Positions 643-36,241 of a stretch of 64,000 bases of DNA are shown here, in pieces. The DNA comes from an uncultured bacterium (GTDB taxonomy: Bacteria; Oederibacteriota; PGYV01; CAWJRG01), in contig CAWJRG010000009.1 of NCBI GenBank assembly GCA_963845185.1, positions 673,782-737,781 of the forward strand, in the 5' to 3' direction. How positions within the stretch are numbered: position 1 is the stretch's first letter; every line of letters starts with the position of its first letter. The notes below the pieces were generated by a model, which saw only the letters and a list, made by a program, of their open reading frames with translations, was not told where the DNA came from and ran no database searches. Position numbers and translations under genes: made by a program.

Positions 643-856
643 TACCGCTTGCCAACGGCCTAACGGCCTTAGGCTTGAGCGGGTACATGGTCTCGTAATG
701 TTTTACCGGCACCTTCGGCTTGGCAAAACAAACGCATAATATCAAGCACCGCTTGCCGGGATAAAACCCCGGCTGGAGCGGGTACATGCTTTCGTAATAC
801 TTTTCCTGCGCCTGTTGACGGTTTGGAAAAGTAAACGAAAGCAAGGGAGGCAATTT
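643..856 (+). repeat. Two tandem copies (A1 643-748, A2 749-856) of the ~105-nt two-hairpin leader element. A2 ends in the SD and start codon of the HTH gene.
   Basis: Both copies carry the conserved blocks ACCGCTTG, (G)GCTTGAGCGGGTACATG, cgTAATgtttt...ggcaaaacAAACg. The stem arms are compensatory relative to other copies. Confidence 0.8.
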
Positions 857-1117
857 ATGAAAGACAAAAAAGATTTTTATTCTATCGCAGAGTTCGGAAA
901 AATACTGGGAATCAGCAGGATAGCTGTTTATAAAAAGATAAAAAAAGGCGATATCAAGGCAATCCAGATAGGCAAATCATACGCCATTCCTGCCGATATG
1001 CTTGAAAGTATTGAAGGAAACGAATTGAATGAGAGCGAAAAGGAACAGCTCGGGAAAGCCGTTAAAAAAGTTTTTGAAAATTACGGAGAAACAATCAAAA
1101 AGCTCGGGAAAGAATAA
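857..1117 (+). CDS. Helix-turn-helix excisionase-family DNA-binding protein. Putative antitoxin or regulator partnered with Doc.
   Basis: GGGAGG RBS 7 nt upstream of the ATG. The HTH reads SIAEFGKILGISRIAVYKKIKKGDI. Its stop abuts the doc start (TAA-ATG). Confidence 0.7.
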   Translation: MKDKKDFYSIAEFGKILGISRIAVYKKIKKGDIKAIQIGKSYAIPADMLESIEGNELNESEKEQLGKAVKKVFENYGETIKKLGKE

Positions 1118-1546
1118 ATGAAGGCAATAAAGAAAATTACAATAAGGGATATTGAATATATTTCACATAAAATGGCATCCGAAATGATGGACTATAACGA
1201 GCCTATACCTAATTTTTCCACGAGGTTCCCGAATATACTTGAAAGCTGTCTTGCCACGCCTTTCATGAGTTTTGGCACCAGGGACCTTTATAAAACCCTT
1301 GTTGATAAGGCAGCTGTTTTGTTTTACCTTATGATAAAAAACCATCCTTTCCAGAACGGCAACAAAAGGGTGGCAATAACAACCCTGATTGTTTTTCTCA
1401 CGAAGAATGAAAAATGGCTGGATGCCAAAAACGATGACCTGTATGAGTTTACCGTATGGATTGCGTCCAGCCCGGCAAGGTCCAAGGATGAGGCTATAAA
1501 AGCAATAGAGGAATTTATTTCATCGGGGATGGTTGATTATAAATAA
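1118..1546 (+). CDS. doc: Doc (death-on-curing) Fic-family toxin.
   Basis: Carries the Fic/Doc motif HPFQNGNKR. Length is 142 aa. It is translationally coupled to the upstream HTH gene. Confidence 0.8.
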   Translation: MKAIKKITIRDIEYISHKMASEMMDYNEPIPNFSTRFPNILESCLATPFMSFGTRDLYKTLVDKAAVLFYLMIKNHPFQNGNKRVAITTLIVFLTKNEKWLDAKNDDLYEFTVWIASSPARSKDEAIKAIEEFISSGMVDYK

Positions 1547-1579
1547 TTGCCGGGTTTCAATAAAAAATAATAATTAAAC

Positions 1580-1607
1580 GTAGAGACGTTTTGCAAAACG
1601 TCTCTAC
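1580..1607 (+). terminator. Perfect 13-bp hairpin (gtagagacgtttt / aaaacgtctctac) after doc.
   Basis: Inverted repeat with a 2-nt loop. There is no strong T-tract, so this may be a bidirectional stem-loop. Confidence 0.4.
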
Positions 1608-1621
1608 AGATAAAAACAATA

Positions 1622-1672
1622 TCATATCAATACCGCTTGTCCTCGGCAGATTCAGGACAATGCTCGGGGTAA
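1622..1672 (+). repeat. Partial copy of the leader element. Only hairpin 1 is present.
   Basis: Reads taccgcttgtcc...ggacaatgctcgggg. It lacks the hairpin-2 module. Confidence 0.4.
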
Positions 1673-1932
1673 AGCAGAATAGGGAGTGATATGGGGGAAG
1701 TGGCCCTTCGACAAGCTCAGGGGAAGAGGATTGGAGGGTTGGAAGGTCGGAAGCTCGGAAGGTCGGAGGAGCAGAGGCTCAGAAGTTCAGAAGTTCAATT
1801 TTCAATTTAAAACCTTTAATCCATATAAAAAATTACGGCTTAAAGTATTATTTGGTATTATTTAGTACTTGACTTACTTAATAAGCAATGATATACTTAA
1901 AAAAAGATGGGAATCGGGAATAGAGAATAGGC

Positions 1933-2160
1933 GGGTTTACAAAATAAACGTTATACAAACACCTCTTGTCCGCGGCAGTAGCCTCGGACTTGAGCGGGTG
2001 TAAGCAAGAGTAATATTTTGCTGCACCCTGCGGGTTTACAAAATAAACGTTATACAAACACCTCTTGTCCGCGGCAGTAGCCTCGGACTTGAGCGGGTGT
2101 AAGCAAGAGTAATATTTTGCTGCACCCTGCGGGTTTACAAAATAAACTCTTGCTTAGGAG
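1933..2160 (+). repeat. Two perfect tandem 99-bp repeats (1933-2031, 2032-2130) plus a partial third (2131-2160). Each is a leader-element variant ending at the SD of the RHH antitoxin gene.
   Basis: Unit is gggtttacaaaataaacgttatacaaacacctcttgtccgcggcagtagcctcggacttgagcgggtgtaagcaagagtaatattttgctgcaccctgc. The stem arms agcaagagtaatatttt / aaaataaactcttgct are compensatory relative to other copies. Confidence 0.85.
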
Positions 2161-2167
2161 GACTATC

Positions 2168-2422
2168 ATGGCAGGAAAAAATATTACTTTCACACTAAAA
2201 CTCGACAAGGATATAAGGAGCCTTTTGAAGGATTTTTGCGAATCAAGGGGGCTTCTTATGAACAGTTTTGTGGAGCGGGCCATAATCGATGAAATCGAAA
2301 AGGAAGAGTTAAAAGAAGACCTGGCCGCAATACAGCATTACGAGAAATTTGAGCGGGATTCCACGATACCGCTCGATAAGGTTGCTGAAGAGCTGAATTT
2401 TTATGCCAAAAAGAAGAAATAA
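2168..2422 (+). CDS. Ribbon-helix-helix antitoxin of the RelB/ParD type.
   Basis: 84 aa. N-terminus ITFTLKLDKDIRSLLKDFCE. The toxin gene follows 2 nt downstream. Confidence 0.65.
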   Translation: MAGKNITFTLKLDKDIRSLLKDFCESRGLLMNSFVERAIIDEIEKEELKEDLAAIQHYEKFERDSTIPLDKVAEELNFYAKKKK

Positions 2423-2424
2423 CC

Positions 2425-2697
2425 GTGTATAAGCTGGAACTATCAGCCACTGCTTACAGGATATTAAAGTCAAAAAAACTCATTCCGAAAGACAACGCTG
2501 CAATAAAAGACAGGATTTTAAGCCTGCAGAACGACCCGCGATCACCCGGCTGCGAGAAACTGAAGGGTTTTGACAAAAACTATTACAGGGTCAGGCAGGG
2601 CAATTACAGGATTGTTTATGAGATAAAAGACACAGAGAAAATAGTGGCAATAGTTTTCATAGGGCACAGGCGGGATGTGTACGGAAAAATCGGGTAA
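2425..2697 (+). CDS. RelE/ParE-family toxin.
   Basis: 90 aa with a GTG start. Reads YRIVYEIKDTEKIVAIVFIGHRRDVY. Confidence 0.7.
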   Translation: MYKLELSATAYRILKSKKLIPKDNAAIKDRILSLQNDPRSPGCEKLKGFDKNYYRVRQGNYRIVYEIKDTEKIVAIVFIGHRRDVYGKIG

Positions 2698-2797
2698 GTA
2701 AATAGTAAAGCTCAAAAGTTCAAGGTTCAAAGTTCAAGGCGGTAACAGTTGAACAGTAGAACAGGTGAGATAAGAAAGGTTCAATTCTCAATTGTCA

Positions 2798-2905
2798 ATA
2801 CCTCTTGTCTTTTGCAGGCTCAAGACTTGAGCGGGTACTTGATAGCGTAATGTTTTGCCTTTGCCTGTTGACGGCTCGGCAAAACAAACGCTATAAGTTT
2901 TCAAT
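2798..2905 (+). repeat. Leader-element copy D. It has both hairpins but no gene immediately downstream. A 3' fragment lies at 2976-3000.
   Basis: Reads atacctcttgtc...gacttgagcgggtacttgatagcgtaatgttttgcc...ggcaaaacaaacgctataag. The arms carry double compensatory changes relative to copy E. Confidence 0.75.
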
Positions 2906-3063
2906 GAATTTGATTCAGTAATTTGGGATTTTGGATTTGGGATTGAAAAATACATGAGACATGCGCAGGGGCCTGTCTCTGCGAAAGACAAACGATATAA
3001 GTTTTCAATTGACGTGAAACTTATTTTGATTGATAATCAATAATCAGGAACCGGAAATAAATT

Positions 3064-3173
3064 GATACCGCTTGTCGGGATAAAACCCTGACTTGAGCGG
3101 GTACATGATTTCGTAATACTTTGCCGGCGCCTATTGACGGCTTGGCAAAGTAAACTAAATCAAGGAGGCAGTC
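3064..3173 (+). repeat. Leader-element copy E, the canonical form. It ends AAGGAGGcagtcATG.
   Basis: Has all conserved blocks. The hairpin-2 loop reads GCCTATTGACGGCTTGG. Confidence 0.8.
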
Positions 3174-3929
3174 ATGAAAAAAGTCTTAATCCCAGCATTA
3201 ATTTTAATTGCAATTTTATTTGCAATCACATGTTCAAAAAAGAAATCCTCGCCCGCAGCGCCTGAGGCGACATCAACAACGGCGCCCGCAAACACTGCTG
3301 CTATGACAGCCACAACGCAGGCTACAGCTACGGCAACAACAGTTAAAACAGCGACAGCCACAGAAACCATAGTAGTGGCGCTGACAGCTACTGAAACTTC
3401 GGTAATATCACCGACAGCCAGCGTTACGATCACAATCACGCTGACAAGCACTGCCTCGCCTACAATAACCCTGACGCCGTGCCCGGGCCTGTCTTTTGGG
3501 AACATGGGGTCGTATGATCTTGATAACAACGCCCTGCAGCTTACATTTAACTCGGCATATACAATCTCAGCTCCGGTCAAGCTTATAGGGTTCAGCTACT
3601 ATGTGGGTGAAATACCGTCAAATGGCGTGGCGCTCATGTGCGACTCAAGCGGAAATGTAATTGCGGAGTCGCCGGTGACAGCAGCAACAAGCACCGGCTG
3701 GCTGAATGTAACCGTAATACCGGTCGAACTGGCTGCAGGCTCGTATTATCTCGGGGTAGACTCGGATACGCTTGGAGGCACAACCGGCTCAAACGGCGGG
3801 TCAACATGGGGGCCGACACCGCCGTCATCGCTCACCACCATACCAACGTCATTTATCTTTGATATCTATAACATGGGACAGGGCAGCGGCTGGACAATGA
3901 ATGTGGAAGCGATATGCACGTGCCCGTAA
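3174..3929 (+). CDS. Lipoprotein with a Thr/Ala-rich linker. Member of a shared-signal-peptide family.
   Basis: Signal peptide MKKVLIPALILIAILFAITCSKKKSS. 251 aa. Confidence 0.65.
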   Translation: MKKVLIPALILIAILFAITCSKKKSSPAAPEATSTTAPANTAAMTATTQATATATTVKTATATETIVVALTATETSVISPTASVTITITLTSTASPTITLTPCPGLSFGNMGSYDLDNNALQLTFNSAYTISAPVKLIGFSYYVGEIPSNGVALMCDSSGNVIAESPVTAATSTGWLNVTVIPVELAAGSYYLGVDSDTLGGTTGSNGGSTWGPTPPSSLTTIPTSFIFDIYNMGQGSGWTMNVEAICTCP

Positions 3930-3963
3930 TGCGGTAAATCACGAATCAGCGCAGATATAATAC

Positions 3964-3998
3964 AAACCCCGGGCCTATATCCCGGGGTTTGCTGTTTG
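3964..3998 (+). terminator. Rho-independent-like terminator.
   Basis: Hairpin aaaccccggg-cctatat-cccggggttt followed by gctgtttgtg. Confidence 0.55.
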
Positions 3999-4039
3999 TG
4001 CAGGAAACTGTACCTGAAGCCCGGCATAAATTTTCAATA

Positions 4040-4145
4040 CCTCTTGTCCGGGTAGTTTTTATATTAAATGAATTATGGATACTACCCGTCAAATAATCCA
4101 CAGGATTATTTGACTGAATGCTCAGGACTTGAGCGGGTACGTGTC
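4040..4145 (+). repeat. Leader-element copy F. Hairpin 1 carries a long nested palindromic insert and hairpin 2 is absent.
   Basis: Reads atacctcttgtcc-[gggtagttttt...actaccc]-[tcaaataatccacaggattatttga]-gacttgagcgggta. The insert is paralogous to the one at 17150-17240. Confidence 0.6.
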
Positions 4146-4216
4146 CGGCACTGCAACCTTTTCCATTTAACTGCATTATATTAAATACAACAGTAAATAA
4201 ATACAGGGAGGCAAAA

Positions 4217-5245
4217 ATGAAAAGATTTTTAAGCTTGGCAGCGGTTTTATTGTTCCTGTCTTCATCAGCTTTTGCGGCAGTCATAGAGGACTGGAGCTAT
4301 GTGATCCCGAACATGGATATTGGTACCTATGCGGATACCAAGGGCTCCAGGATTGACTTCACCATCGAAGCAGGACCCTGCGGGGCCAAGGCCGTCAAGC
4401 TGACGTCCAAAATAGTCCATGGCGGCTGGTGCGGGATATGGCGCAATCTTTACGCAGACCTTTCCGGGGACAAATCCCTCCAGTTCAAGGTCAAGTCCAA
4501 TACGGCCGGTGAAGTGGAGATTGGATTGACCGACGGTTATGACGTGCAATACACCACCCGCTTTACGGTTTTTGCCAAGGATTGGACGGAAGTCACAGTG
4601 CCCTTATCCTCCTTCAACAAAAATTCTTATTACACTGCGCCGGACGCGGTCATGGGGCATCCCATGGACCTCACCACGATCAAGGCCATGAGTTTCTCAT
4701 CCCAGATTGCGGGCGATTCAGCCGTGGAAATCGGGCCTGTCGAGGCAGTTGGGACAGCATCAGATAGCGCGGCTGCCGCAGTTCCTGCTACCGGCAGTAT
4801 TGTAAAGCAGAATAACGCGGATTTCAGCCAGGGAAAACAGGGGTGGTATCTCTGGACAAACCAGACCGGAAAAGGCGAATTTGAAGCGGTAGACGGCAGG
4901 GCACAGGTTAAAATTACTGATCCGGGAACATTGATATGGTCTTTAGGATTGGCGAATCCCTACATCAAGATCGAAAAGGACAGGATGTATAAAGTCGAAT
5001 TTGAAGCCAGGTCAAGCCCTCCTATAAACCTGAAAAGCCTGGTGCAGCTTAATAAGCAGCCGTACACCGAATATTCAGGGTTCCGGTACTTTAAACTGAC
5101 TGAAAACAACAAAAAATATTCTTATACTTTTATCATGAGGCATGATACGGACCCGGCAGCGGCTTTCGAGTTCGAATGCGGCGGGCAAATAAAAAGCATA
5201 ATAACTCTGGGCAATGTAAAGATATTTGATATGGGAAGCAAATAA
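4217..5245 (+). CDS. Secreted protein with a CBM-like N-terminal domain plus a second beta-rich domain. Glycoside-hydrolase-cluster paralog that lacks a catalytic domain.
   Basis: Signal MKRFLSLAAVLLFLSSSAFAAVIEDWS. Shares the N-terminal domain (GGWCGIWR) with the genes at 5262 and 6828. Confidence 0.55.
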   Translation: MKRFLSLAAVLLFLSSSAFAAVIEDWSYVIPNMDIGTYADTKGSRIDFTIEAGPCGAKAVKLTSKIVHGGWCGIWRNLYADLSGDKSLQFKVKSNTAGEVEIGLTDGYDVQYTTRFTVFAKDWTEVTVPLSSFNKNSYYTAPDAVMGHPMDLTTIKAMSFSSQIAGDSAVEIGPVEAVGTASDSAAAAVPATGSIVKQNNADFSQGKQGWYLWTNQTGKGEFEAVDGRAQVKITDPGTLIWSLGLANPYIKIEKDRMYKVEFEARSSPPINLKSLVQLNKQPYTEYSGFRYFKLTENNKKYSYTFIMRHDTDPAAAFEFECGGQIKSIITLGNVKIFDMGSK

Positions 5246-5261
5246 AAAAACGGAGGCAAAA

Positions 5262-6782: not shown

Positions 6783-6827
6783 ATGCAGTACATAGTAAGT
6801 TAACAAAATCATAAACGGAGGCAAAAA

Positions 6828-9269: not shown

Positions 9270-9342
9270 AGCTGCCCGCCAAATAGTTCATTGGACTATC
9301 TGACCATGGCCAAACCTTAAGCAAAAACTCCTGAAAAAAACC

Positions 9343-9371
9343 TTGACAAACCGTGTTTTTAACTGTATATT
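9343..9371 (+). promoter_or_regulatory. Sigma70-like promoter (TTGACA, 17 bp spacer, TATATT) for the abiE-like operon.
   Basis: Exact consensus -35 with 17-nt spacing, located 37 nt upstream of the 9408 start. Confidence 0.5.
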
Positions 9372-9407
9372 ACTGTTGTAAGTAAGTTAACAGAAAGGAT
9401 AACTTTT

Positions 9408-10070
9408 ATGGAACAGCAAATAATACAGAAAATCGCGGGAAAAAGGGGCATAAGCCCGGACGCGGTTGTCAGGGAGTACTACGAATACCTGCTCCTGCGT
9501 GAGCTTTATGAGAGCCCCGTCGGCGACGGCCTGGTTTTCAAGGGAGGCACCGCGCTGCGCGTTTTTTACGGCCTGCCCAGGTACTCCGACGACCTTGATT
9601 TTGAAATGACGAAAAAATTCGGGTTTGCAGCTTTTTCCGGCGCAATAAAGGCCGCGGCAGGCAAATTTGAAAACATGAAAATAACCGACCTGTGGGGAAA
9701 AAATTACACATACATATGCGAGATAAAGGCTACCGAGACATGGCTTAAAATGCCTTTCTCAATCAAAATAGAGGTCTCCAAGCGGCCTGCGGCAAAGGGA
9801 CGGGAATCCGAGCTCAAAATGGCTGCGTCCGGGGATTTCGGCATACAGGCGTTCGGCAGGGTTTTGACCCTCGACTCGCTTTATGAGGACAAAAAAGCAG
9901 CCATAGCGGGCAGGGATGAGCCAAAGGATTATTTTGACATGTGGTACATCTGTCAGGTGAAAAAGGTGCCTTTTACGCCGGGTAAAAAGCCGGATAAAAA
10001 AAGGTACAGGCAGGTGCTGGGAAAATACCTGCCCAGGCAGTACCTGAAAGTGCTGGATGAGATACTGTGA
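9408..10070 (+). CDS. AbiEii-family nucleotidyltransferase toxin (DUF1814-like).
   Basis: Motif FKGGTALRVFYGLPRYSDDLDFE. Confidence 0.7.
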   Translation: MEQQIIQKIAGKRGISPDAVVREYYEYLLLRELYESPVGDGLVFKGGTALRVFYGLPRYSDDLDFEMTKKFGFAAFSGAIKAAAGKFENMKITDLWGKNYTYICEIKATETWLKMPFSIKIEVSKRPAAKGRESELKMAASGDFGIQAFGRVLTLDSLYEDKKAAIAGRDEPKDYFDMWYICQVKKVPFTPGKKPDKKRYRQVLGKYLPRQYLKVLDEIL

Positions 10071-10660
10071 ATACAATAACACTTTTGAAAAAACTCGGGG
10101 ACATAGGCAAGGGGTATTACACGCCGGCCGATATAGGCAAGATAACAGGGCTGTCAGGCGGCGCGCTCAAGGTCAGGCTGAACAGGCTGATAAAATCCGG
10201 CATAATAGAGCGGCTTAGCCGCGGAATGTACGGCGTGCCGGGAATGAAGACAGACACAGAGCGCGCGGCAAACGATGCGGTGTACCCGTCATACATATCT
10301 TTTGGCTCGGCGCTGTCAAAGTACGGCGTGATAAGCGAAGTGCCGTACGTACTGGAGTTTGCCACCACAAAAGGGACGAGGAAGAAACAAATAGGGGGCA
10401 TGGACGTCCTGTACAGGAAACTGCAGAAGAAACTTTTTTTCGGTTATACCATGTCAAACGGCGTGATGATAGCTGAGCCGGAAAAGGCAGTGCTGGACAT
10501 GGTATACCTGAAAGCCGCGGGAAAATACGCCGGAAATGAGGCGGAAAAGCTTGACCTTAGAAAGCTGGACATGAAGAAACTTAAAAAGTACGCGATGAGA
10601 TTCCCAGCAAAGGCCAGGGCAGCCCTTGAGGCTGTGACTGGCTTGCGGATAAAAAGATAA
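10067..10660 (+). CDS. AbiEi-like antitoxin or transcriptional regulator with a winged HTH.
   Basis: N-terminal region reads ITGLSGGALKVRLNRLIKSGIIERLSRGMYGV. The GTG start overlaps the upstream stop as GTGA. Confidence 0.55.
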   Translation: MNTITLLKKLGDIGKGYYTPADIGKITGLSGGALKVRLNRLIKSGIIERLSRGMYGVPGMKTDTERAANDAVYPSYISFGSALSKYGVISEVPYVLEFATTKGTRKKQIGGMDVLYRKLQKKLFFGYTMSNGVMIAEPEKAVLDMVYLKAAGKYAGNEAEKLDLRKLDMKKLKKYAMRFPAKARAALEAVTGLRIKR

Positions 10661-10713
10661 ATAATATTAATGGGATCTGGGATTTTAAATGGGCCAAATA
10701 CCAAATGCCAAAC

Positions 10714-10886
10714 CGGAACTAACGCTTGTCCGGATAGAACTCGGACTTGAACGGGGTTAATAAATTCTCAATTAAAAATTGTCAATGTTAAATTAAGGTA
10801 TTTAATTGATAACTGCGAATTGATAATTGAAAATTAACGGAAGTTGACGGCTTGGTAAAACAAACGATCTTAAGGGAGACTTCATC
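10714..10886 (+). repeat. Leader-element copy G. Hairpin 1 spans 10714-10760. An unrelated AT-rich insert separates it from the hairpin-2 3' part, which runs 10840-10886 and ends in the SD-ATG.
   Basis: Reads ctaacgcttgtccggatagaactcggacttgaacgggg ... gttgacggcttggtaaaacaaacgatcttaagggagac. Confidence 0.6.
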
Positions 10887-11414
10887 ATGAAAAACGGATT
10901 CTGGTACACTTACAACGACGCTGACCCCGGGGGCTCTTCCTCGGTTCTGCCTTCGCCGGGCAGACCATTTACAATGACGAGGCCCGGCCACGGCCCCGGC
11001 AACGAATGCGCCTGCCTGAAAGGAAAAGTAACGACCCGGTACCCGCACGGTTTTATCGGCATGGGATACTATTTAAGCCCTGCGGATGTCAAAAAGCCTT
11101 TTGACCTCAGTGATAAATCCGGCATCAGGTTCTGGCACAGGGGCGATGGCAGGAAATACAGGGTAAAACTCACGTCCGTACACCCGGATTTTAGCGGCAG
11201 GGACGGGGACAACCACTTCGGCTATGACTTCCAGGCGGATAAAGATTGGGCACAGATTGAGATAAGCTTTTCGGACATTTCACAGCAGCCAGGGTGGGGG
11301 AGCAAAGTGGATGTAAAGAACGCGTTGTCGATGATAAAGGAAATACAGTTCTGCACCCTGGGGCAACCGCATGACTCTGTTGAATTGTGCATAGACAGCC
11401 TGGAGGTGTTTTAG
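10887..11414 (+). CDS. CIA30/CBM11-like carbohydrate-binding domain protein.
   Basis: 175 aa with no signal peptide. Similar to the N-terminal domains of the glycoside-hydrolase paralogs. Confidence 0.4.
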   Translation: MKNGFWYTYNDADPGGSSSVLPSPGRPFTMTRPGHGPGNECACLKGKVTTRYPHGFIGMGYYLSPADVKKPFDLSDKSGIRFWHRGDGRKYRVKLTSVHPDFSGRDGDNHFGYDFQADKDWAQIEISFSDISQQPGWGSKVDVKNALSMIKEIQFCTLGQPHDSVELCIDSLEVF

Positions 11415-12539: not shown

Positions 12540-12620
12540 ATTCCGTTCCGGTTCCGGGGATTTGTAAAAAATTACTTGATTTTAGTAATATTTTACGATA
12601 TAATTTAGTTAAGAAAATAA

Positions 12621-12833
12621 TGAACTACCGCTTGTCCGGGTAGAACCCGGACTTGAGCGGGTACATGATTCCGTAATACTTTACCAGCGCCTGTTGACGG
12701 CTTGGTAAAGTAAACGAAATTATAAGTACCTCTTGTCCCTCATAAACTCGGGACTTGAACGGGTACTTGATCTCGTAATGTTTTATCATCGCTTTCAGCT
12801 TGATAAAACAAACGATCTCAAGGAGGTGTTCAT
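12621..12833 (+). repeat. Two tandem leader-element copies (H1 12621-12724, H2 12725-12833) ending in the SD-ATG of an RHH antitoxin gene.
   Basis: H1 arms tactttacc/ggtaaagta and H2 arms gatctcgtaatgttttatca/tgataaaacaaacgatc are compensatory. The H2 terminal loop differs from the others (tcgctttcagct). Confidence 0.8.
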
Positions 12834-13070
12834 ATGAGCACGATAACTTTAACTTTAAAGATCGACAAGGCTAAGAAAAAGGCTGTTTATGATTTTTGCC
12901 ACGAGCAGGGGCTGATGGTGAACAAGTTTTTTGAAAAAGCCGCTGAAAACGAGATAGAAAGGCATCTTTTAAACGAAAGCACGAATGTATTCGCCAATTA
13001 TGAAAAACGCAAAAAAACTGCTGTTGATTTCGACCGGGTTGTGAAACTAATAAAAGCAAAGAAAAAATAG
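12834..13070 (+). CDS. RHH antitoxin, paralog of the gene at 2168.
   Basis: Reads MSTITLTLKIDKAKKKAVYDFCHEQGLMVNKFFEKAAENEIE. Confidence 0.6.
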   Translation: MSTITLTLKIDKAKKKAVYDFCHEQGLMVNKFFEKAAENEIERHLLNESTNVFANYEKRKKTAVDFDRVVKLIKAKKK

Positions 13071-13073
13071 CGT

Positions 13074-13373
13074 ATGCGCATAGTACTTATGATGCTTGAG
13101 TTTTTGAAAAAATTCCTGTTATTATCCGGCAGGGAACAAAAAATAATAACCCATATCAGGGCTGACATAGGCCGTAAGCGGGAATTTAACAGGAACGAGG
13201 GGTTTGTCAGGATGCAGCCCGGAAACCTGAAAAGCGCGCAGGGATTTGTATATGAGCCTTCGCTTGATATCAGGCTGAAGAAACTCAGGCTTACCGGCCC
13301 GTATTTCAGAATATGGTTTACAGCCGAAAAAAACGGGGATGTTTATTTTGTTGATTTTGAAAAACTTGATTAA
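13074..13373 (+). CDS. RelE/ParE-superfamily toxin. The true start may be the ATG at 13092.
   Basis: About 95 aa. The C-terminus reads YFRIWFTAEKNGDVYFVDFEK. It sits 3 nt after the antitoxin stop. Confidence 0.5.
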   Translation: MRIVLMMLEFLKKFLLLSGREQKIITHIRADIGRKREFNRNEGFVRMQPGNLKSAQGFVYEPSLDIRLKKLRLTGPYFRIWFTAEKNGDVYFVDFEKLD

Positions 13374-13383
13374 AATAATTAAC

Positions 13384-17119: not shown

Positions 17120-17149
17120 CCTTAAAGATTCGATATATTAATACAGCAC

Positions 17150-17240
17150 AGCTTCCGGGTAGTTTTCATAATATAATAACTTATGGAAACTACCCGTTAT
17201 TATTTGGCTCTTTGCTAAAGCTCCGGACTTAAGCAGGCAG
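17150..17240 (+). repeat. Degenerate leader-element or palindromic-insert copy J.
   Basis: Hairpin ccgggtagttttcataatataataacttatggaaactacccg followed by ccggacttaagcagg. Paralogous to the insert in copy F. Confidence 0.45.
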
Positions 17241-22846: not shown

Positions 22847-22848
22847 AT

Positions 22849-26146: not shown

Positions 26147-26163
26147 AACGGAGGTGGTTATGA

Positions 26164-28052
26164 GTGCGCCGAGAAAAGCGTATCGGTTCGCGCTGGTGAA
26201 AGTCCAGCCTGGGCAAAGGTCAGCCGCCAGCCCAATACCAAATTCCACAAATAGTGAGGCAACGAGCTAAATGAAGCTGGAAGGCGGGAGACATCGGGAT
26301 ACAACGCAAGTGAAGGTATTGAGCCCCGAAATCGCCAACGTGTCGGAGGCCGACATTTTTCATAAAAGAGCAGGCAGCAGTCCCACAATCATAAAAAGGC
26401 GAGAGAGTGGGAATCCGACGGGGTCTAAGTCCGTGTCAAGATGTCAAGGAGCAGATATGAACTCGGGAGAGCCGGGACACCCTCAAAACGAGAGTATGCG
26501 GCGACAAATCCTAAAAGATAAGGAGCCGCAAAAGATGTTCCGGCAGTCTGACTATCCCATAGTATCGATGAAGTCTACGAAAAGTAGATGGAGAAAAGGG
26601 GATAGAGGGAATGCGTATGGACATAAGGGAGACAACCGCCACACACAGAGGTGGAGACGGAATGGCAACAAAACTTATGACCATAACAATGCGGGCAAAG
26701 GAAAATCCAAAATTGAGATTTACATCGCTGATACACCTGCTCAATGAGGAGTTTCTAATGGAGTGCTTTGGGGAGTTAAAACAGGACAAAGCCCCGGGCA
26801 TTGACGGAGTAAGGATAGAGGAATATGAAGTCAACAAAGAGGCAAATATCAAGGATTTAATCAATAGGATGAAGGCGTGGAGATACATACCGCAACCAAC
26901 AAGGCGCGTCTACATCCCCAAGACAAACGGAGACAAGAGGCCGCTGGGAATACCTGCCGTCGAGGATAAGATAATCCAGATGGGGGTAAAGAAAATTCTT
27001 GAGTCAATCTTTGAGGTAGACTTCAGCGAAGTATCTTACGGGTTCAGGCCTGACAGAAATTGTCATCAGGCATTGAAAATTCTGGATAAGGAAGTAATGA
27101 CAAAGCCAGTCAACGCAGTAGTGGATATGGACATTGAGAAGTTTTTCGATACCATAAACCACAAATGGCTAATGAAATGCCTTACGCAAAGGATTGCCGA
27201 TACAAACCTGATAAGGTTAATCGGCAGGATATTAAATGCAGGGATTATGGAAGAAGGTAAGTTTATCGAAACGGATAAAGGGACGCCGCAGGGCGGAATA
27301 CTAAGCCCATTACTGGCGAACATCTACCTACACTACATATTAGACCTGTGGTTCGAAAGGCATGTCAAGAGACAGCTCAAAGGATACGCCAGTCTGATAC
27401 GTTATGCCGATGACTTTGTTGTGCTGTTCCAATATGACAGCGAAGCAAAGGAGTTTGGCGAAATGTTAAGACAGAGGCTTGATAAGTTTGGCCTCAAAAT
27501 CGCCAAAGATAAATCGAGAATAATCGTATTCGGGCGCCACGCCTGGTATAAGTCCAAAGATACAGGCGGGAAAATTCCGACCTTTGATTTCCTCGGGTTT
27601 ACTCATTACTGCGACAAAACCAGAAAGGGCGGCTTCAAATTAGGCCGAAGGACGGCAAGTACAAAATTCAAACAGAAGATGAAGGCGACGAACTTCTGGC
27701 TAAAGAGCGTAAGAAATCTTGTGGAATTAAAACAGTGGTGGCAGGCATTAGGAAGAAAGTTAACGGGCCACTACAATTATTACGGGATAAGCGGTAATAT
27801 GCCCCAAATAACAAAATTCTACTGGAGAAATCGTGCGCTCGCCTATAAATGGATAAACAGGCGAAGCCAGAAAAGAAGTTACAACTGGGAACAGTTTTGC
27901 CGCTTTCTAAAGATACAACCCATTGCCGGAACCCAGGATATATCATTTAACCTATTCGCTGTCATCGTATTAGGAAGTATTCCCGTGGAGCCGAATGACC
28001 GAAACGGTCACGTTCGGTTCTGAGAGGGGCATTAAGTAACCAAAGGAGGTTA
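26164..28052 (+). mobile_element. Group II intron. The 5' end is GTGCGCCGAG, domain V lies at ~27990-28022, and domain VI follows.
   Basis: Starts GUGCG at 26164. The internal RT/maturase ORF runs into domain V (gagccgaatgaccgaaacggtcacgttcggttc). The 3' boundary is approximate, within about 15 nt. Confidence 0.75.
26611..28023 (+). CDS. ltrA: Group II intron-encoded reverse transcriptase/maturase with no endonuclease domain.
   Basis: RT motifs PGIDGV, RRVYIPKTNGDKRPLGIP, FDTINH and YADDFVV. A domain X follows. There is no HNH tail. Confidence 0.85.
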   Translation: MRMDIRETTATHRGGDGMATKLMTITMRAKENPKLRFTSLIHLLNEEFLMECFGELKQDKAPGIDGVRIEEYEVNKEANIKDLINRMKAWRYIPQPTRRVYIPKTNGDKRPLGIPAVEDKIIQMGVKKILESIFEVDFSEVSYGFRPDRNCHQALKILDKEVMTKPVNAVVDMDIEKFFDTINHKWLMKCLTQRIADTNLIRLIGRILNAGIMEEGKFIETDKGTPQGGILSPLLANIYLHYILDLWFERHVKRQLKGYASLIRYADDFVVLFQYDSEAKEFGEMLRQRLDKFGLKIAKDKSRIIVFGRHAWYKSKDTGGKIPTFDFLGFTHYCDKTRKGGFKLGRRTASTKFKQKMKATNFWLKSVRNLVELKQWWQALGRKLTGHYNYYGISGNMPQITKFYWRNRALAYKWINRRSQKRSYNWEQFCRFLKIQPIAGTQDISFNLFAVIVLGSIPVEPNDRNGHVRF

Positions 28053-28058
28053 TAAAAG

Positions 28059-29072
28059 ATGTCTACTCACAAAAAAATCTTAATCTCAGTACTAATTTTA
28101 ATTGCAATTTTATTTACAATCACATGTTCAAAAAATTCTTCATCTTCTTCGGCGTCACCATCCGGCCCCAACCCGACACCGGTTATAACCCCGGTCCCTA
28201 CGGCCGGATATCCGTATTCGGATCTTGTACCTGCTTCCGGTGGCGCATTTACCCAGTCAGATACGTCTGGAAACAGTTTCTCCTCCACAGTCTCTGCTTT
28301 TAAAATAGGAAAGTATCAGGTGACCTATGATTTGTGGTACAAGGTACGACTTTGGACAGTTGCCAATGGATATACTTTTGCTTATTCAGGCCACGAAGGC
28401 AATACCGGGGCAGAAGGAGCAGTAACAACTACTGCAAAATACCTGCCGGTCACATATATAAGCTGGAGGGATGCCGTAGTATGGTGCAATGCATACAGCC
28501 AGATGACTGGGCTTACGCCTGTATACTGCACAGATTCAGGGTATGCCACGCCAATCAAGACTTCCATAGATGCAAGTTATGGCAGCAGTGTAGATACTGC
28601 TAACGGCAGTATTGATAATCCATACGTGAACTGGAACGCAAACGGATACAGGCTGCCTACGGAGAGCGAATATCAGTACGCGGCAAGTTACATAGACGGC
28701 ACAAACTGGACACCGTATAACTATGCCAGCGGTGCAGAAGATATCTACTCGGACATAGCAGCGACCAGTCTTGTAGCGTGGTTTTATAGCGATTGCTCCG
28801 ACATGCAGGCTGTGGGCTTGTTAAATGCAAACAAGCTTGGAATATATGATATGTCGGGAAATGTGCAGGAGTGGTGCTGGGATTGGTTTGGAACATATCC
28901 AACCACGGCTCAAACAGATTACAGGGGCCCTGCGAGCGGTTCTGCCCGCGCATTACGCGGCGGAAGCTATACTGATTACGCAGCAGCCATGGAGGTCGGC
29001 ATCCGTATAAGCAACGGCCCGTATAACTCGGGAAACCTGCTTCTCGGCTTCCGTGTTGCAAGGACGTATTAA
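28059..29072 (+). CDS. Lipoprotein with an FGE-sulfatase (SUMF1/EgtB-type) domain.
   Basis: Signal ...ILFTITCSKNSSS. Motifs SGNVQEWCWD and RALRGGSY...GFRVAR. Confidence 0.6.
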   Translation: MSTHKKILISVLILIAILFTITCSKNSSSSSASPSGPNPTPVITPVPTAGYPYSDLVPASGGAFTQSDTSGNSFSSTVSAFKIGKYQVTYDLWYKVRLWTVANGYTFAYSGHEGNTGAEGAVTTTAKYLPVTYISWRDAVVWCNAYSQMTGLTPVYCTDSGYATPIKTSIDASYGSSVDTANGSIDNPYVNWNANGYRLPTESEYQYAASYIDGTNWTPYNYASGAEDIYSDIAATSLVAWFYSDCSDMQAVGLLNANKLGIYDMSGNVQEWCWDWFGTYPTTAQTDYRGPASGSARALRGGSYTDYAAAMEVGIRISNGPYNSGNLLLGFRVARTY

Positions 29073-29115
29073 AAAGAAACGCGATATTTATCAATCTAAT
29101 GCGAGGTAAAAAATG

Positions 29116-29916: not shown

Positions 29917-30075
29917 TTTTTTTTAAATGCAAAGATTTACCGGAAATAAAATCCGGAAAGTATCCGCGGCGTGAATGCCGGGACTGAACGGACATACATA
30001 CGGCAATTACTGACAAAATTATAACCCGGGGATATACTTGTAATCAGTTTTAATTTTTAATTTGGTATGGAGGTA

Positions 30076-30906
30076 ATTATGAAAAAAATCCTGATTACAT
30101 CATTAATCCCTGCATTAATTTTTGCTGCAATTACCTGCAGAAAGACTTCTCCGCCTGCTTTTCCTGCGGCAACAAATACTCCAAATGCCGGGCAGACAGT
30201 GGAGGCAGTATTGACTGCGGACGCAATCCCATACTCCACCCAGACGCAGATTGCAAAATTATATACGCCGACTGTTACCGTGACAATGACGGCGACGCCG
30301 AACATGACGCAGACAATAGGCGCGATACTTACGGCCGTAGGCGCAGGCAATGCTTCGGCAACTGCCGTTGCCGGTTTATACACGCCTACAATTACCGGCA
30401 CAGGCACGCAGACTCCAAATACAACATTGACGGTCCAGGCAATATTGACAGCCGTGGGGGCGGGCAATGAGACAGCCACGCAAGCGGCGCAAATGACCCA
30501 GACTGCGGCAGCTGTTTTATGGACTCCAACAAGCACGGCAACCATTACCGCAACAATAAGCGGATTACAACAAACAGCAACAGTCCTGGCGCAGGAAACA
30601 GCGACCATGACCGCAATGTTTGTTATCGGGCTTGGCAGTTCTGCGCCGTACCCCGGAACCTTTAACGGGCAGTTTCAAAATCCTTCGGGCGTGGCATTGG
30701 ACAGCAGCGGAAACGTATATGTTGCTGACACGCTGAATTACAGAATCGAGGAATTCAACAATGCAGGCACGTATATTACCCAATGGGGCAGTTCCGGAAA
30801 CGGCATAGGGCAGTTTTACCAGCCCCGGGGTATAGCAGCAGACAGCAGCGGCAACGTATATGTTGCAGACGAGGGCAACAGCAGGATCGAAGTATTCCAT
30901 CCGTAA
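30076..30906 (+). CDS. Lipoprotein with a Thr-rich linker and two NHL repeats.
   Basis: Signal ...IFAAITCRKTS. Contains SSGNVYVADTLNYRIEEF. Confidence 0.55.
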   Translation: MMKKILITSLIPALIFAAITCRKTSPPAFPAATNTPNAGQTVEAVLTADAIPYSTQTQIAKLYTPTVTVTMTATPNMTQTIGAILTAVGAGNASATAVAGLYTPTITGTGTQTPNTTLTVQAILTAVGAGNETATQAAQMTQTAAAVLWTPTSTATITATISGLQQTATVLAQETATMTAMFVIGLGSSAPYPGTFNGQFQNPSGVALDSSGNVYVADTLNYRIEEFNNAGTYITQWGSSGNGIGQFYQPRGIAADSSGNVYVADEGNSRIEVFHP

Positions 30907-31004
30907 AATAATTGGTATTTAGGAATTGTCAATGCTGAATTTAGGTAGTAAAATAACCCTGATTAAAGCAGTCAGTTGAAAATTTACAGAATATGGAGGG
31001 AATC

Positions 31005-33716: not shown

Positions 33717-33807
33717 TATTTGTATATTGATAATTGAGAATTAGTAAAGGTTTTCGGTTCGGCAAAACAAACGCTAGAAGTTGTCAATTTTCAATGAAGG
33801 AGATTTA

Positions 33808-34164
33808 ATGAAAAAGTTTGGTTTTGTTTTTTTATGGCTGTTGATTCTTGTTTCTTTTGCGGTTTGCGCGGATGCAGGCGGAAATACCATAAATGCGGAG
33901 GCTGCTAAACCGGAATTACTATATCCAAACCTTAATTATTTTCTCGGGATGAATATAGGTATTACGGGCGATGATAAAATATACAGCACCAATGACCCTG
34001 CTATAGAACCGCTATTAATGAGTACTTCAAAAGGAAAAGAATACCTTGAGCACTATTATTTTAAAAATACATTCGGAGTTATTATGTCGCTCAGTTCAAT
34101 CGCGGATATTATTGCTCAATTCAATTATATGGGAACTCATGTCAACAGCCCCCGGACAAAATGA
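33808..34164 (+). CDS. Small secreted protein.
   Basis: Signal MKKFGFVFLWLLILVSFAVCADA with an RBS reading GAAGGAG. Confidence 0.4.
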   Translation: MKKFGFVFLWLLILVSFAVCADAGGNTINAEAAKPELLYPNLNYFLGMNIGITGDDKIYSTNDPAIEPLLMSTSKGKEYLEHYYFKNTFGVIMSLSSIADIIAQFNYMGTHVNSPRTK

Positions 34165-34415
34165 CAGCAACAATAACTGTATCAGCTATGTTGTTGGGTA
34201 TTATCGGCTGTGTTACAGCTCCATGGATTATAGATTCGTCATATAATGACCTTTATAAGAGCATAAATGAATATAACCTGACAGTCTCCTGCGGGAAAGA
34301 GACAAAGGCTGTTATAAAGAAGGAAATAAAATTTTAATCATTCGCTCAGGAGATTAACAAAGGCAGGGATCAAGCAGATTTTTATATTGTCAATTTTCAG
34401 TTGAGGTGATCAATC

Positions 34416-35186
34416 ATGTTCAAAAAAATCATATGCATTGCAATATTATTGTTTAGTTTTGCCGGATTCGGCTGTGAACCGGCGGGACCGCCGAAAACCA
34501 TACTTTTCATCGGCAACAGCTTCACCTACGTTAATGATTTGCCAGGTTTATTTACCAAACTGGCGCGCTCAGGCGGGAAACTGGTGGCTGCAGGAATGGT
34601 TGCGCCCGGAGGATACAAGCTCATTCAGCACGTTAACGACGGGAATACCATTCAAAAACTAAACTCGCAGAAATGGGACATGGTGGTTTTGCAGGAGCAA
34701 AGCCAGACACCGGCTATTGAGGATGATAAATACGACATCATGTACCCGGCCATACGCAGTTTTAATGAAATGATACGCAAGGCAGGTGCAGTGCCGATTC
34801 TTTACCTGACCTGGGGCCGCAAAAATGGCGACACTGAGTTAGGCTACAGCGACTATGCTTCCATGCAGGACAGCCTAACAAAGGGCTACATGGACATCGC
34901 ACAGGAGCTTTCTATTGAGGTGTCACCGGTCGGGGCCGCCTGGAAAACAGCGCATGAGCGCCGGCCCGAGCTGGAGCTCTGGGCAGGTGACGGAGTACAC
35001 CCCAGCCTGGCAGGTTCCTATCTCGCGGCCTGTGTTTTTTACGCGGTCATCTATAAAAAAAGCCCTGAAGGTTTGGGTTTTAAGGCAGGCTTGGATGTGG
35101 ACACAGCTTCGTTTTTACAGACAGTCGCGTCGGAAACTGTCCTGACCGATACAAAAAAGTGGCTTATTCCCGAAGAAGGGAAATAA
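34416..35186 (+). CDS. Secreted SGNH/DUF4886-like hydrolase.
   Basis: Signal peptide present. Reads ILFIGNSFTYVNDLPGLF. Confidence 0.45.
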   Translation: MFKKIICIAILLFSFAGFGCEPAGPPKTILFIGNSFTYVNDLPGLFTKLARSGGKLVAAGMVAPGGYKLIQHVNDGNTIQKLNSQKWDMVVLQEQSQTPAIEDDKYDIMYPAIRSFNEMIRKAGAVPILYLTWGRKNGDTELGYSDYASMQDSLTKGYMDIAQELSIEVSPVGAAWKTAHERRPELELWAGDGVHPSLAGSYLAACVFYAVIYKKSPEGLGFKAGLDVDTASFLQTVASETVLTDTKKWLIPEEGK

Positions 35187-35199
35187 TAAATTTTCAATT

Positions 35200-35772
35200 T
35201 TGCTAATCAGGAAAAATTCCGCAACCTTTTTCATATTATTCCGTTATATTGATAGTGTCGGAAAACCCGGAGCGACTGAACCAATGGATTTAAAAAATAT
35301 TACTAAAAAAGGTAATGAAGGAGTATTTGACTCGAAGAACTTGGCCCTTTTTTCGTATTGTCGCCAAAACCCTATGATAATAATTGATCCAGATGGCAGA
35401 AGTGGTTTAAGTTTATGGGGTAATGTACCTATTGCACCGCTTGTCGATGTTACTTTGGGCCCGGTTTTTTCTGAAGAAGGAATTGCACTGAAAGTAGGAA
35501 TATCTCTTGGTCTTGAAACTCCATTTGGGAGTAGTCTTGATTTAGATAAATTTATGCCTGGATTTAATTCGGATTTTTCATTACTAGGAAAATTTGATGC
35601 TAAAGGAAAATTTACAGGAATTAATTTATTAGCTGCAGGTTGGGAATTGAGTTATACCACCCCTGCTATATCGTGGCAAGAAGTTAAAGAACTTCAACAT
35701 CCGTTAACAACAGGATCTCGACTTACGGGTCCAGATTTATCTCCTGACGTTGAAGATAAACAATTCTGGTAA
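35200..35772 (+). CDS. Orphan Rhs/YD-repeat C-terminal tip. Only the last ~30 residues of the core (YC.QNP...DPDG cleavage motif) are present, followed by a ~140-aa toxin-like domain of unknown type. The start is uncertain, possibly the ATG at 35284.
   Basis: Reads NLALFSYCRQNPMIIIDPDGRSG with no Rhs repeats upstream. The preceding gene ends at 35186. Confidence 0.5.
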   Translation: MLIRKNSATFFILFRYIDSVGKPGATEPMDLKNITKKGNEGVFDSKNLALFSYCRQNPMIIIDPDGRSGLSLWGNVPIAPLVDVTLGPVFSEEGIALKVGISLGLETPFGSSLDLDKFMPGFNSDFSLLGKFDAKGKFTGINLLAAGWELSYTTPAISWQEVKELQHPLTTGSRLTGPDLSPDVEDKQFW

Positions 35773-35800
35773 GGAGGTATTGCAATATGGAGAACTATTC

Positions 35801-36091
35801 ATGAATATTTTTAAATGGGTAACGATTATAGTCGTATTGAGCTGGTCTTTTTTATTATTTTTTTTAAATAAGATAATTGCTAGAGCATATATAAATTTCC
35901 AGGTAAACACTATTTTTAGAGGTTTGTTTGTTACGTATTTTATTAAAAAGTATGGTTTTGAAAAAGCAAAAATTATATTATCAAGCGATAATAATATTTT
36001 AATGAAGATTTATCGATTTGATAATATATTTGTTTCTATAGCATCTTTGTTGTGTTTAATATATGTTTGTGTTTTTTTAAATAAAATTTAA
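35801..36091 (+). CDS. Putative immunity protein for the Rhs tip. Small hydrophobic protein.
   Basis: 96 aa immediately downstream of the toxin tip. AT-rich, with an atypical composition. Confidence 0.35.
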   Translation: MNIFKWVTIIVVLSWSFLLFFLNKIIARAYINFQVNTIFRGLFVTYFIKKYGFEKAKIILSSDNNILMKIYRFDNIFVSIASLLCLIYVCVFLNKI

Positions 36092-36139
36092 AGTTTGTTG
36101 ATAATATTTGTTAAAATATTCGCAGATAGTTTTAAAAAC

Positions 36140-36241
36140 TGATACCGCTTGTCGGGACCTGCGGCCCGGACTTGAGCGGGTATAAGATTCCGTAGGCGTT
36201 TGATAAAACCAAACGCAACGGCATCTAACAAGGAGGCTGAC
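36140..36241 (+). repeat. Leader-element copy K, placed immediately upstream of the transposase start codon.
   Basis: Reads gataccgcttgtcgggacctgcggcccggacttgagcgggtataagattccgtaggcgtttgataaaaccaaacgcaacggcatctaacAAGGAGGctgacATG. Confidence 0.7.

Follow-up and report, generated by a model that had tools for sequence, protein, structure and literature searches.

The Neisseria REP2 repeats are 120–150 bp long, lack terminal inverted repeats (TIRs), contain two internal stem-loops and lie directly upstream of open reading frames (ORFs), whose ribosome binding site (RBS) they include; they are thought to be a copied 5′ untranslated region (5′UTR), and the IR sequences of Borrelia plasmids are similar to them (PMC3184786). 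The bcr1 repeat of the Bacillus cereus group is mobile, is transcribed with its neighbors and folds as RNA into two stem-loops that are kept by compensatory changes (PMC3184786). Here, we describe an element that belongs to this broad kind, the bacterial interspersed structured repeats acting as gene leaders, in a 64,000-nucleotide stretch of an uncultured bacterium (contig CAWJRG010000009.1, positions 673,782 to 737,781; hereafter the window). The element, called M here, is ~100–115 nt long, consists of two self-contained hairpins and in most copies ends at the Shine–Dalgarno (SD) sequence of one of many unrelated genes; M itself is not in Rfam.

Like REP2, also named CREN (contact-regulatory element), M has no TIRs and two stem-loops, lies directly upstream of unrelated ORFs and is joined to the RBS. 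Unlike REP2, which is described as bringing its own promoter and ATG, M has its promoter outside, and the SD–ATG spacer and the ATG are those of the gene. The two come from different phyla, and we set M beside REP2 by description, as its nearest described analogue rather than a member: for M, the evidence demonstrates insertion polymorphism, stacking in tandem and extensive compensatory change, and for REP2, co-regulation has been shown. With bcr1, M shares a small, non-autonomous and interspersed nature, a structure maintained by compensatory changes and a distribution that varies between close relatives, but bcr1 carries 5-bp direct repeats at its ends and has no fixed relation to the RBS, whereas M shows no target duplication and sits in one orientation at the SD. 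The features of classical miniature inverted-repeat transposable elements, TIRs and a target-site duplication, are absent from M. The pneumococcal BOX, RUP and SPRITE repeats are further small non-autonomous interspersed repeats of the bcr1-like kind. Phage T7 RNase III processing hairpins and synthetic insulators such as RiboJ place a stable hairpin, its internal loop small and asymmetric, immediately before an SD and thereby buffer the RBS from the sequence upstream; these are compared with M only in how it may work, and no ribozyme family matches M.

We favor, with moderate confidence, the reading that M is a non-autonomous mobile 5′-leader module of Candidatus Goldbacteria and close relatives, analogous to Neisseria REP2/CREN. 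If this is true, M would be a clear natural case, with both filled and empty alleles, of a mobile element landing in the 5′UTR exactly at the RBS without destroying expression. It would offer a possible route for unrelated genes to gain a common leader and hence common control, and an experimentally tractable ~105-nt module that may serve as a natural RBS insulator or stabilizer. It would also mark genome plasticity in the Goldbacteria, an uncultured phylum of cellulolytic bacteria. The family adds a structure with 22 covarying pairs to those in Rfam, and the invariant base of its first hairpin points to a conserved partner, a transposase or an RNA-binding protein.

Copies of the Element

The left 39 kb of the window consist of accessory DNA with toxin–antitoxin pairs, CBM/GH5 genes, NHL/TPR surface proteins, an IS1182 transposase and a group II intron, while the right-hand region holds the core genes rho, rpmE, prfA, prmC, dnaE, hyp genes and secA; the Rho protein is 82–87% identical to proteins named Candidatus Goldbacteria or Goldiibacteriota at NCBI. 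A covariance model trained on 10 window copies finds 12 copies of M, 10 of them strong and 2 weak (10718–10849 and 4036–4217). All are on the forward strand and confined to positions 641–36238. M is dense in this lineage: over 36 kb of accessory DNA there are 12 copies, against none in the 28-kb core-gene half at 37–64 kb. The repeat reported in the initial annotation was thus recovered by sequence reading, repeat detection and the covariance model alike. Three core motifs are strongly enriched: CTTGAGCGGGTA with at most 2 mismatches (13 matches against 3.2 expected), ACCGCTTGTC with at most 1 mismatch (17 against 2.3) and TTGACGGCTTGGCAAA with at most 3 mismatches (7 against 0.9); 0 of 100 shuffles reach the observed counts, and the matches associated with the element are all on the forward strand. 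The complete, partial and degenerate copies are as follows, with bit scores from the covariance model, folding z-scores and loci outside the window labeled by L-numbers.

641–744 (+): copy A, upstream member of a head-to-tail pair; 75 bits, z = −1.2, outer stem decayed; 3′ end ...ATATCAAG, joined directly to copy B
745–855 (+): copy B; 100 bits, z = −5.1; ends ...GCAAG then GGAGG, 6 nt 5′ of the ATG (857) of an HTH_17 antitoxin-like gene, which is followed by Fic/Doc
1630–1672 (+): degenerate hairpin-1-like remnant, TACCGCTTGTCC...GGACAATGCTCGGGGTA
1958–2056 (+): copy C1; 80 bits, closing outer stem and SD absent; belongs to a recent 99-nt tandem duplication beginning near 1931
2057–2166 (+): copy C2; 99 bits, z = −5.0, stems GCAAGAG/CTCTTGC and ATTTTG/CAAAAT; then AGGAGG and the ATG (2168) of a DUF6290 antitoxin plus ParE toxin
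2797–2903 (+): copy D, an orphan; end ...CGCTATAAG then TTTTCAAT, with no SD or ORF after it; a copy of the same type occurs at L119
3064–3174 (+): copy E, the best model match; 109.5 bits, z = −4.9; then AAGGAGG and the ATG (3174) of a lipoprotein gene
4036–4145 (+): copy F, hairpin 1 only, weak model match; hairpin 1 interrupted by a nested repeat, N, at 4050–4116, hairpin 2 missing; CBM protein gene starts at 4217
10718–10886 (+): copy G, disrupted, weak model match; hairpin 1 intact, ~85 nt of A/T-rich sequence (10760–10843) in place of the 5′ arm of hairpin 2, 3′ half TTGACGGCTTGGTAAAACAAACGATCTTAAGGGAG retained; ATG at 10887
12624–12723 (+): copy H1; z = −7.0; orthologous to the single M of L127
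12725–12832 (+): copy H2, of a subfamily other than that of H1; ATG at 12834; not in L127
13384–13494 (+): copy I; 108 bits, z = −5.3; then AAGGGAGG and the ATG (13498) of a TPR lipoprotein
17145–17240 (+): degenerate hairpin 1, containing a degenerate nested repeat N (17157–17215)
33726–33780 (+): partial copy, hairpin 2 3′ half GGTTCGGCAAAACAAACGCTAGAAG, then a TTGTCAATTTTCAAT leader; gene at 33808
36141–36238 (+): copy J; z = −3.1; hairpin 1 canonical, hairpin 2 of the usual shape but unrelated sequence (GATTCCGT-AG-GCGTTTG...CAAACGC-A-ACGGCATC); then AAGGAGG and the ATG (36243) of an IS1182-type transposase

To the copies listed earlier, we add the partial one at 33726–33780. For two of those listed, at 4040–4145 and, as a degenerate form, at 17150–17240, hairpin 1 was recovered, split by the nested repeat, but hairpin 2 was not. 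The A/T-rich segment of copy G holds promoter-like hexamers (TTGATA-17-GAAAAT at 10806–10834), and a similar ATTGATAATTGA(A/G)AATTA piece precedes the partial copy at 33726. We looked for insertion sequence (IS) terminal repeats around the IS1182 gene that would let copy J ride within an IS and found none that were convincing.

Outside the window, a specific pattern that left out the 3′ arm of M and the SD identified 24 loci in JGI metagenomes, 23 of which are true. An over-loose pattern applied to a collection of species genomes gave 113 loci, nearly all chance matches, among which the covariance model picked two true ones, L042 and L098. The model has 42 matches in all; besides the 12 window copies, ~25 copies of M come from peat metagenomes. 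Among viral contigs, we found five chance matches and no M. M is also absent from 177 kb around rho of three related species, leaving no orthologous comparison possible there, and ~300 kb of further Goldbacteria loci contain a single copy, which lies antisense between fabG and acpP (L155).

The proposal that M matches no described family was borne out for Rfam. At the gathering threshold, no Rfam 15 family matches M and only the group II intron is found in the window; at E ≤ 10 over positions 600–4300, zero matches overlap any copy. The absence of Rfam matches rules out twister, pistol, hatchet and hammerhead ribozymes, GEMM and group II domains as identities of M.

Filled and Empty Alleles

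The evidence for insertion comes from relatives of two toxin–antitoxin operons. Five genomes share the promoter of the RHH-antitoxin cassette (TTGATT-N17-TATAAT or TATACT). Three of them (L155, L156 and L160; antitoxin 87%, 73% and 68% identical) continue from this promoter into a 16–20-nt A-rich 5′UTR and AAGGAGG–ATG, with no M. In L127, one M lies between the A-rich leader and GGAGG, and in the window there are two, H1 and H2. Since H2 is absent from L127, it represents a second insertion, placed between H1 and GGAGG. The HTH–Doc operon shows the same at an independent site: the orthologues L168 and L169 (Doc 90% identical) and L170 (93%) keep the TTGACA-N17-TAACAT promoter and the GTTAAC repeats and have no M, their leader running straight into the SD, and the window carries copies A and B (215 nt) at that very point, before GGAGG. 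As relatives of both operons have the same promoter and 5′UTR without it, M is an insertion; the empty-site alleles that the initial annotation suggested looking for therefore exist at two independent operons. Together, the filled and empty alleles show, at the level of sequence comparison, that M is mobile.

Other comparisons delimit the element. Between the transposase after copy J and a fragment at L131, homology begins exactly at AAGGAGG, with M on the window side only. A homologue of the lipoprotein gene after copy E (L117) also has M, and its promoter region is unrelated. Terminal copies read ...CAAG then G(G)AGG, and tandem junctions ...CAAG then YACC; M lands either just 5′ of an SD or at the 3′ end of another copy, and copies stack head to tail. 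Identity between copies that precede unrelated genes reaches 92%, in keeping with a repeat whose spread is recent.

The gene that follows the toxin–antitoxin cassette in L127 is not orthologous to the TPR gene of the window, leaving no empty site for copy I. The RHH–toxin cassette with its promoter is itself a movable unit, present at 12562–13374 of the window and at L127:8945–9661 with differing neighbors on both sides; the homology runs from ~12 nt upstream of the −35 box to just past the toxin stop codon. An AbiEii/AbiEi pair (9336–10650) is also found in L127, at a different position relative to the RHH cassette.

Position between Promoter and Shine–Dalgarno Sequence

The best sigma70-like matches of the region (10/12) all lie 20–60 nt upstream of an M or an M pair. 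The candidate promoters are as follows.

557–585 (+): host promoter of the HTH–Doc operon, TTGACA-17-TAACAT, 10/12; upstream of copies A and B
1869–1897 (+): host promoter, TTGACT-17-TATACT; upstream of copies C1 and C2
3009–3037 (+): host promoter, TTGACG-17-GATAAT; upstream of copy E
12576–12604 (+): host promoter of the RHH-antitoxin cassette, TTGATT-17-TATAAT; upstream of copies H1 and H2
13351–13379 (+): promoter-like site, TTGATT-17-AATAAT, 9/12; upstream of copy I

Given that the best matches are upstream of M and that the same promoters occur in orthologues without it, the promoter is separate from M and not part of it. The promoter-like sequences upstream of the metagenome copies likewise differ between loci. 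A sigma70 signal, TTGAGC-N15-TAAT, had been proposed to be embedded in the element; its 15-nt spacer is too short, and the promoter candidates found upstream, which are present in the orthologues lacking M, take its place. An internal promoter starting from the loop sequence TTGACG was rejected on the grounds that the loop is variable.

At the other end, 23 of 33 complete distinct copies have GGAGG within a few nucleotides and then a co-oriented ORF of 60 aa or more; 5 copies come first in a tandem, and 6 are orphans. The association with the SD and an ORF is not an artefact of ascertainment, since the scan pattern excluded the 3′ arm and the SD. The claim that each copy is fused to an SD–ATG therefore holds for most copies but not for A, C1 and H1, the upstream members of pairs, or for the orphan D. 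The spacer between the SD and the ATG is not conserved among copies and is gene-specific, and the downstream proteins are unrelated: they include RHH, DUF6290 and Phd antitoxins, HTH proteins, lipoproteins, lumazine synthase (RibH), an Rrf2 regulator, a serpin, YbjQ, an oxidoreductase and a transposase. The description of M as a portable structured element beside the SD of unrelated genes is thus supported, and the empty-site alleles add that it arrived by insertion.

Predicted folds, both minimum free energy and partition function, leave the SD free. The predicted probability of the SD being unpaired was 0.51 with native M and 0.33 with shuffled upstream sequence (n = 25, P = 0.0016), and within the main family the folds revealed no conserved alternative pairing that would hide the SD. 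At three metagenome loci (L128:512–560, L130:434–490 and, on the minus strand, L132 downstream of 620), M is followed by a shared GGGAGCAT...GCTCCAC segment with no ORF directly after it. This segment may pair with and hide an SD-like GGGAG, as a sequestering-hairpin variant or a longer leader.

Structure and Compensatory Changes

Eight of nine copies fold into both hairpins, with z-scores from −3.1 to −7.0, copy A being decayed. At the base of hairpin 1, the sequence TACCKCTTGTC...GGACTTGARCGGGTA hardly varies, including in distant genomes whose local GC content is 38–58%. Across 39 copies, TACC(G/T)CTTGTC and GGACTTGA(G/A)CGGGTA are invariant and pair with each other; written as RNA (UACCKCUUGUC/GACUUGARCGGGUA), this base has a fixed U·G pair and a 2-nt bulge, and the apical part above it varies freely. 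Hairpin 2 has an outer stem of 8–10 bp, a small A-rich internal loop (GUAAU/AAAC), an inner stem of 8–10 bp and a dispensable tip. Its 3′ arm forms the invariant 3′ terminus of M, ...CAAG, abutting GGAGG. The variable parts are the top of hairpin 1 and both stems and the tip of hairpin 2. In copy J and in L042, L098 and L155, hairpin 2 keeps its shape with unrelated sequence, and the base of hairpin 1 is identical.

To quantify covariation, we used a structure-blind MAFFT alignment of 27 copies. The proportion of paired cells was 91.5%, compared with 82.1% in shuffles, and both sides change in 22 of the 36 pairs, compared with 10.8 ± 1.7; 0 of 500 shuffles were as high. When the partner was slid by ±1–3 columns, pairing was only 30–46%. 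The covariance-model alignment of 39 copies gives an agreeing result. Compensation was also seen between orthologous copies: H1 and the M of L127 differ by paired changes in hairpin 2, ACTTTACC/GGTAAAGT against ACTTTGCC/GGCAAAGT and GCC..GGC against ATC..GGT, and the differences comprise A–T against G–C, G–C against A–T and a wobble on the sense strand.

These results refine three features given by the initial annotation. The stems are kept by compensation rather than by sequence in hairpin 2 and in the apical part of hairpin 1, but not at the hairpin 1 base, which is invariant in sequence. The terminal loop described as usual, GCCTGTTGACGGCTTGG, occurs in ~60% of copies, others having short loops in its place, and it can carry a ~70-nt insertion. 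The internal loop described as invariable, TAAT opposite A-AAC, reads GTAAT/AAAC in ~34 of 39 copies, the exceptions being copy J and the distant copies, with GTAGG, GTAAA or GTAAG opposite CAAC or TAAC.

The ends of M, ..RR then TACCKCTTG and ..ATCAAG then GGAGG, are not inverted repeats. The ~10 nt 5′ of TACC sort into subfamily-specific classes, which leaves the true 5′ end of M uncertain by about 10 nt. Three candidate features were rejected. A three-codon mini-ORF inside M (ATG ATT TCG TAA) has CTG, AAG or ATA as its start in several copies and no SD; the internal loop showed no match, by inspection, to a K-turn, a loop E or a tetraloop-receptor; and the bases of ATTTCGTAATA, which we take to resemble a pdif XerC half-site, covary freely, so that a Xer/dif-like site was dismissed.

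A Proposed Mobile Leader and Its Alternatives

According to the mobile-leader reading that we favor, M would insert in one orientation into an existing 5′UTR, downstream of the promoter and operators of the gene and immediately 5′ of GGAGG, and would also insert at the 3′ end of another M, giving head-to-tail pairs. From its position and folding, we infer that it would be co-transcribed as an mRNA leader, the transcript folding on itself and leaving the RBS exposed at the foot of a stable helix, with the CAAG of M and the GGAGG of the host making up an extended AAGGAGG. Folding away from the RBS may render the insertion tolerated or even useful, as an insulated and possibly stabilized leader. 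The invariance of the hairpin 1 base implies a partner that is conserved and sequence-specific, for which this base may be the recognition site and which would be either the mobilizing enzyme or a regulator; with a regulator, unrelated genes could come under common control, as proposed for Neisseria REP2/CREN. A role at the RNA level is suggested by the gene-wise orientation in the main family, the position between promoter and SD, the fixed U·G pair, the paired substitutions between H1 and L127 and the accessibility of the SD.

Several observations weigh against this reading. Gene scans of the 64-kb window found no transposase or recombinase that could mobilize M, M shows no TIRs and the filled and empty alleles no target duplication, and the left flank offers only R–R before TACC and no clear target motif; M may instead have spread via recombination or gene conversion between leaders. 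The folding energies of the sense and antisense strands do not differ (−41.2 and −41.6 kcal/mol, P = 0.39), and the excess of G·U over A·C (80:30) comes mostly from two columns and is weakly informative; the conserved structure could thus act in single-stranded DNA (ssDNA). An ssDNA structure for mobility and a role as RNA could also both be true. Finally, the copies at L042, L098 and L155 occupy non-syntenic sites and are not leaders, which suits a stand-alone RNA gene or a stray insertion. L042, from the metagenome-assembled genome (MAG) "bacterium ELA348", has a tandem pair of M between two opposite-strand genes, followed by a terminator-like hairpin that is shared with a convergent gene; L098, from a MAG labeled candidate division FCPU426, also has a terminator-like hairpin after M; and in L042 and L155 no same-strand gene follows M.

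The alternative to be taken most seriously, although we regard it as unlikely, is that M is a purely selfish hairpin transposon with no RNA role, an IS200/IS605-derived PATE or a REPIN mobilized by a Y1/HUH enzyme. The hairpins and the base of hairpin 1 would then be recognized in ssDNA, and adjacency to the SD would reflect a short target (...AAG then G) together with purging of harmful insertions. M does share with PATEs and REP/REPIN–RAYT systems its hairpin-rich make-up, strict orientation, lack of TIRs and target-site duplications and insertion next to its own copies, here as tandem stacking at the ...CAAG end; its structure is equally stable on both strands, and the stems are decayed in some copies (A and C1). 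The nested repeat N, which carries a GGGTAG...CTACCC hairpin and inserts behind YTG in M loops, implies that hairpin-type mobile DNA is active in this lineage. Unlike those systems, M comes with no Y1/HUH transposase that we could find: no Y1 transposase-like ORF occurs in the ~0.6 Mb searched, a weak test covering a fraction of the genome, and no TnpB or Y1 Pfam domain is present among the window genes. Nor does R–R before TACC amount to the defined 4–5-nt target of those elements, and REPs are 20–40 nt long and lie mostly 3′ of genes, whereas M is ~105 nt long and lies 5′ of genes at the SD. The paired substitutions that followed insertion in orthologous copies also speak against a purely selfish element, and the greater accessibility of the SD compared with shuffled leaders suggests selection acting on the RNA.

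A bolder form of the mobile-leader reading, to which we give limited credence, makes M an RBS-homing transposable riboregulator that would target the SD region or its own CAAG and, by carrying an invariant hairpin that binds protein or RNA to unrelated genes, build a post-transcriptional regulon from them; no counterpart of such an element has been described. The 5′ ACCUCUUG of M is complementary to CAAGGAGGU, and such homing could possibly be directed by base pairing.

It is rather improbable that M acts as a riboswitch-like or protein-binding cis-regulatory leader RNA that was copied before many genes in the manner of GEMM/c-di-GMP riboswitches and senses a global signal or factor through the base of hairpin 1 and the A-rich internal loop. 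Covarying stems around invariant unpaired or bulged nucleotides, the location between promoter and SD, the frequent tandem arrangement and the tolerance of 70-nt insertions in peripheral loops would all fit, and the terminator-like hairpins of L098 and L042 and the possible SD-sequestering hairpin of L128, L130 and L132 are reminiscent of alternative expression platforms. However, the downstream genes are unrelated in function, toxin–antitoxin pairs and a transposase among them, and the orthologues of two operons do without M; these two facts make a riboswitch unlikely. The very high identity between copies extends to non-core parts, no SD-hiding alternative pairing was found in the main family, Rfam has no match, and in L042 and L155 there is no same-strand gene to regulate. 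Of the suggestion that M is a new cis-regulatory RNA family, the conserved and covarying structure stands, while the regulatory part is weakened by orthologues without M, unrelated genes and identities of up to 92%.

Least expected among the RNA-based explanations is that M is primarily a stand-alone small RNA gene with its own A/T-rich −10-like box upstream of TACC, the 5′UTR copies being secondary and perhaps precursors for processing. The non-leader copies at L098, L042 (in tandem) and L155 have a TATATT or TAATAT box a few nucleotides upstream of TACC, and the first two are followed by terminator-like hairpins; TATAAT-like hexamers 2–8 nt upstream of TACC are also common in many copies and at tandem junctions. 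Yet the three stand-alone copies are at non-syntenic sites, L042 shares its terminator with a convergent gene, and a consistent −35 box is lacking; the host promoters of the main family clearly lie apart from M, and the flanks are A/T-rich in any case.

The integron-like gene capture put forward by the initial annotation, with M as the recombination site of a cassette array, is scarcely credible: like attC sites (e.g., Vibrio VCRs), M is a ~100-nt structured repeat with paired arms and a variable center that stands in front of small co-oriented accessory genes, toxin–antitoxin pairs included, and hairpin 2 looks superficially like attC (7-bp outer stem, unpaired spacer, inner stem, variable tip), but there is no IntI or other tyrosine recombinase in the 64 kb (Pfam scans of all sizeable ORFs gave only the IS1182 DDE transposase and the intron reverse transcriptase [RT]), RYYYAAC (R″) and GTTRRRY (R′) cores are missing and the outer arms GATTTCG/CGAAATC, GATAGCG/CGCTATC and GCAAGAG/CTCTTGC covary freely, the genes are not promoterless cassettes but bring promoters and terminators of their own, the mobile toxin–antitoxin cassette is bounded elsewhere (5′ of the −35 box and immediately past the stop codon), and alleles without M keep the gene, promoter and 5′UTR, which places M inside the transcription unit, within a pre-existing 5′UTR, and not at a cassette boundary.

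The Nested Repeat and Neighboring Features

The nested repeat N is ~67–75 nt long and lies in loops of M. In the window, it is found at 4050–4116 and 17157–17215, with a remnant at 9270–9306; elsewhere, it occurs at L131:838–905, in L121 and L136 and twice in L118. It consists of a GGGTAGYTTTTATAT...ACTACCC hairpin, a GTCAAATAGTCCnnnGGACTATTTGAC hairpin and TG, is always inserted after YTG and ends in ACTG or ACTA. By these features, it looks like a REPIN or a miniature element of the IS200/IS605 type.

A short leader motif, TTGTCAATTTTCAnT(G)AAGGAG or AAGTTTTCAAT, precedes two genes (33772–33808 and 34388–34415). The same motif follows orphan copies of M (compare 2896–2910 and 2994–3008), and its recurrence suggests that pieces of leader have been shuffled further.

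Short runs of simple tandem motifs (such as GGAAGGTCGGAAGCTCGGAAGG, AGTTCAAGGTTCAAAGTTCAAGG and GGGATTTTGGATTTGGGATT) are found at 1700–1800, 2700–2745, 2915–2945 and 10670–10700. They are intergenic and upstream of several promoters or M copies, and similar runs precede the copies in L119 and L120.

The group II intron (Rfam RF02005 and RF00029) occupies 26165–28071, with its RT ORF at 26611–28023. It starts directly after GGAGGTGGTTATGA and ends just before AAAAAAATCTTAATC..., which codes for the signal peptide of an FGE-sulfatase lipoprotein; as the intron lies within the first codons of this gene, expression would need splicing.

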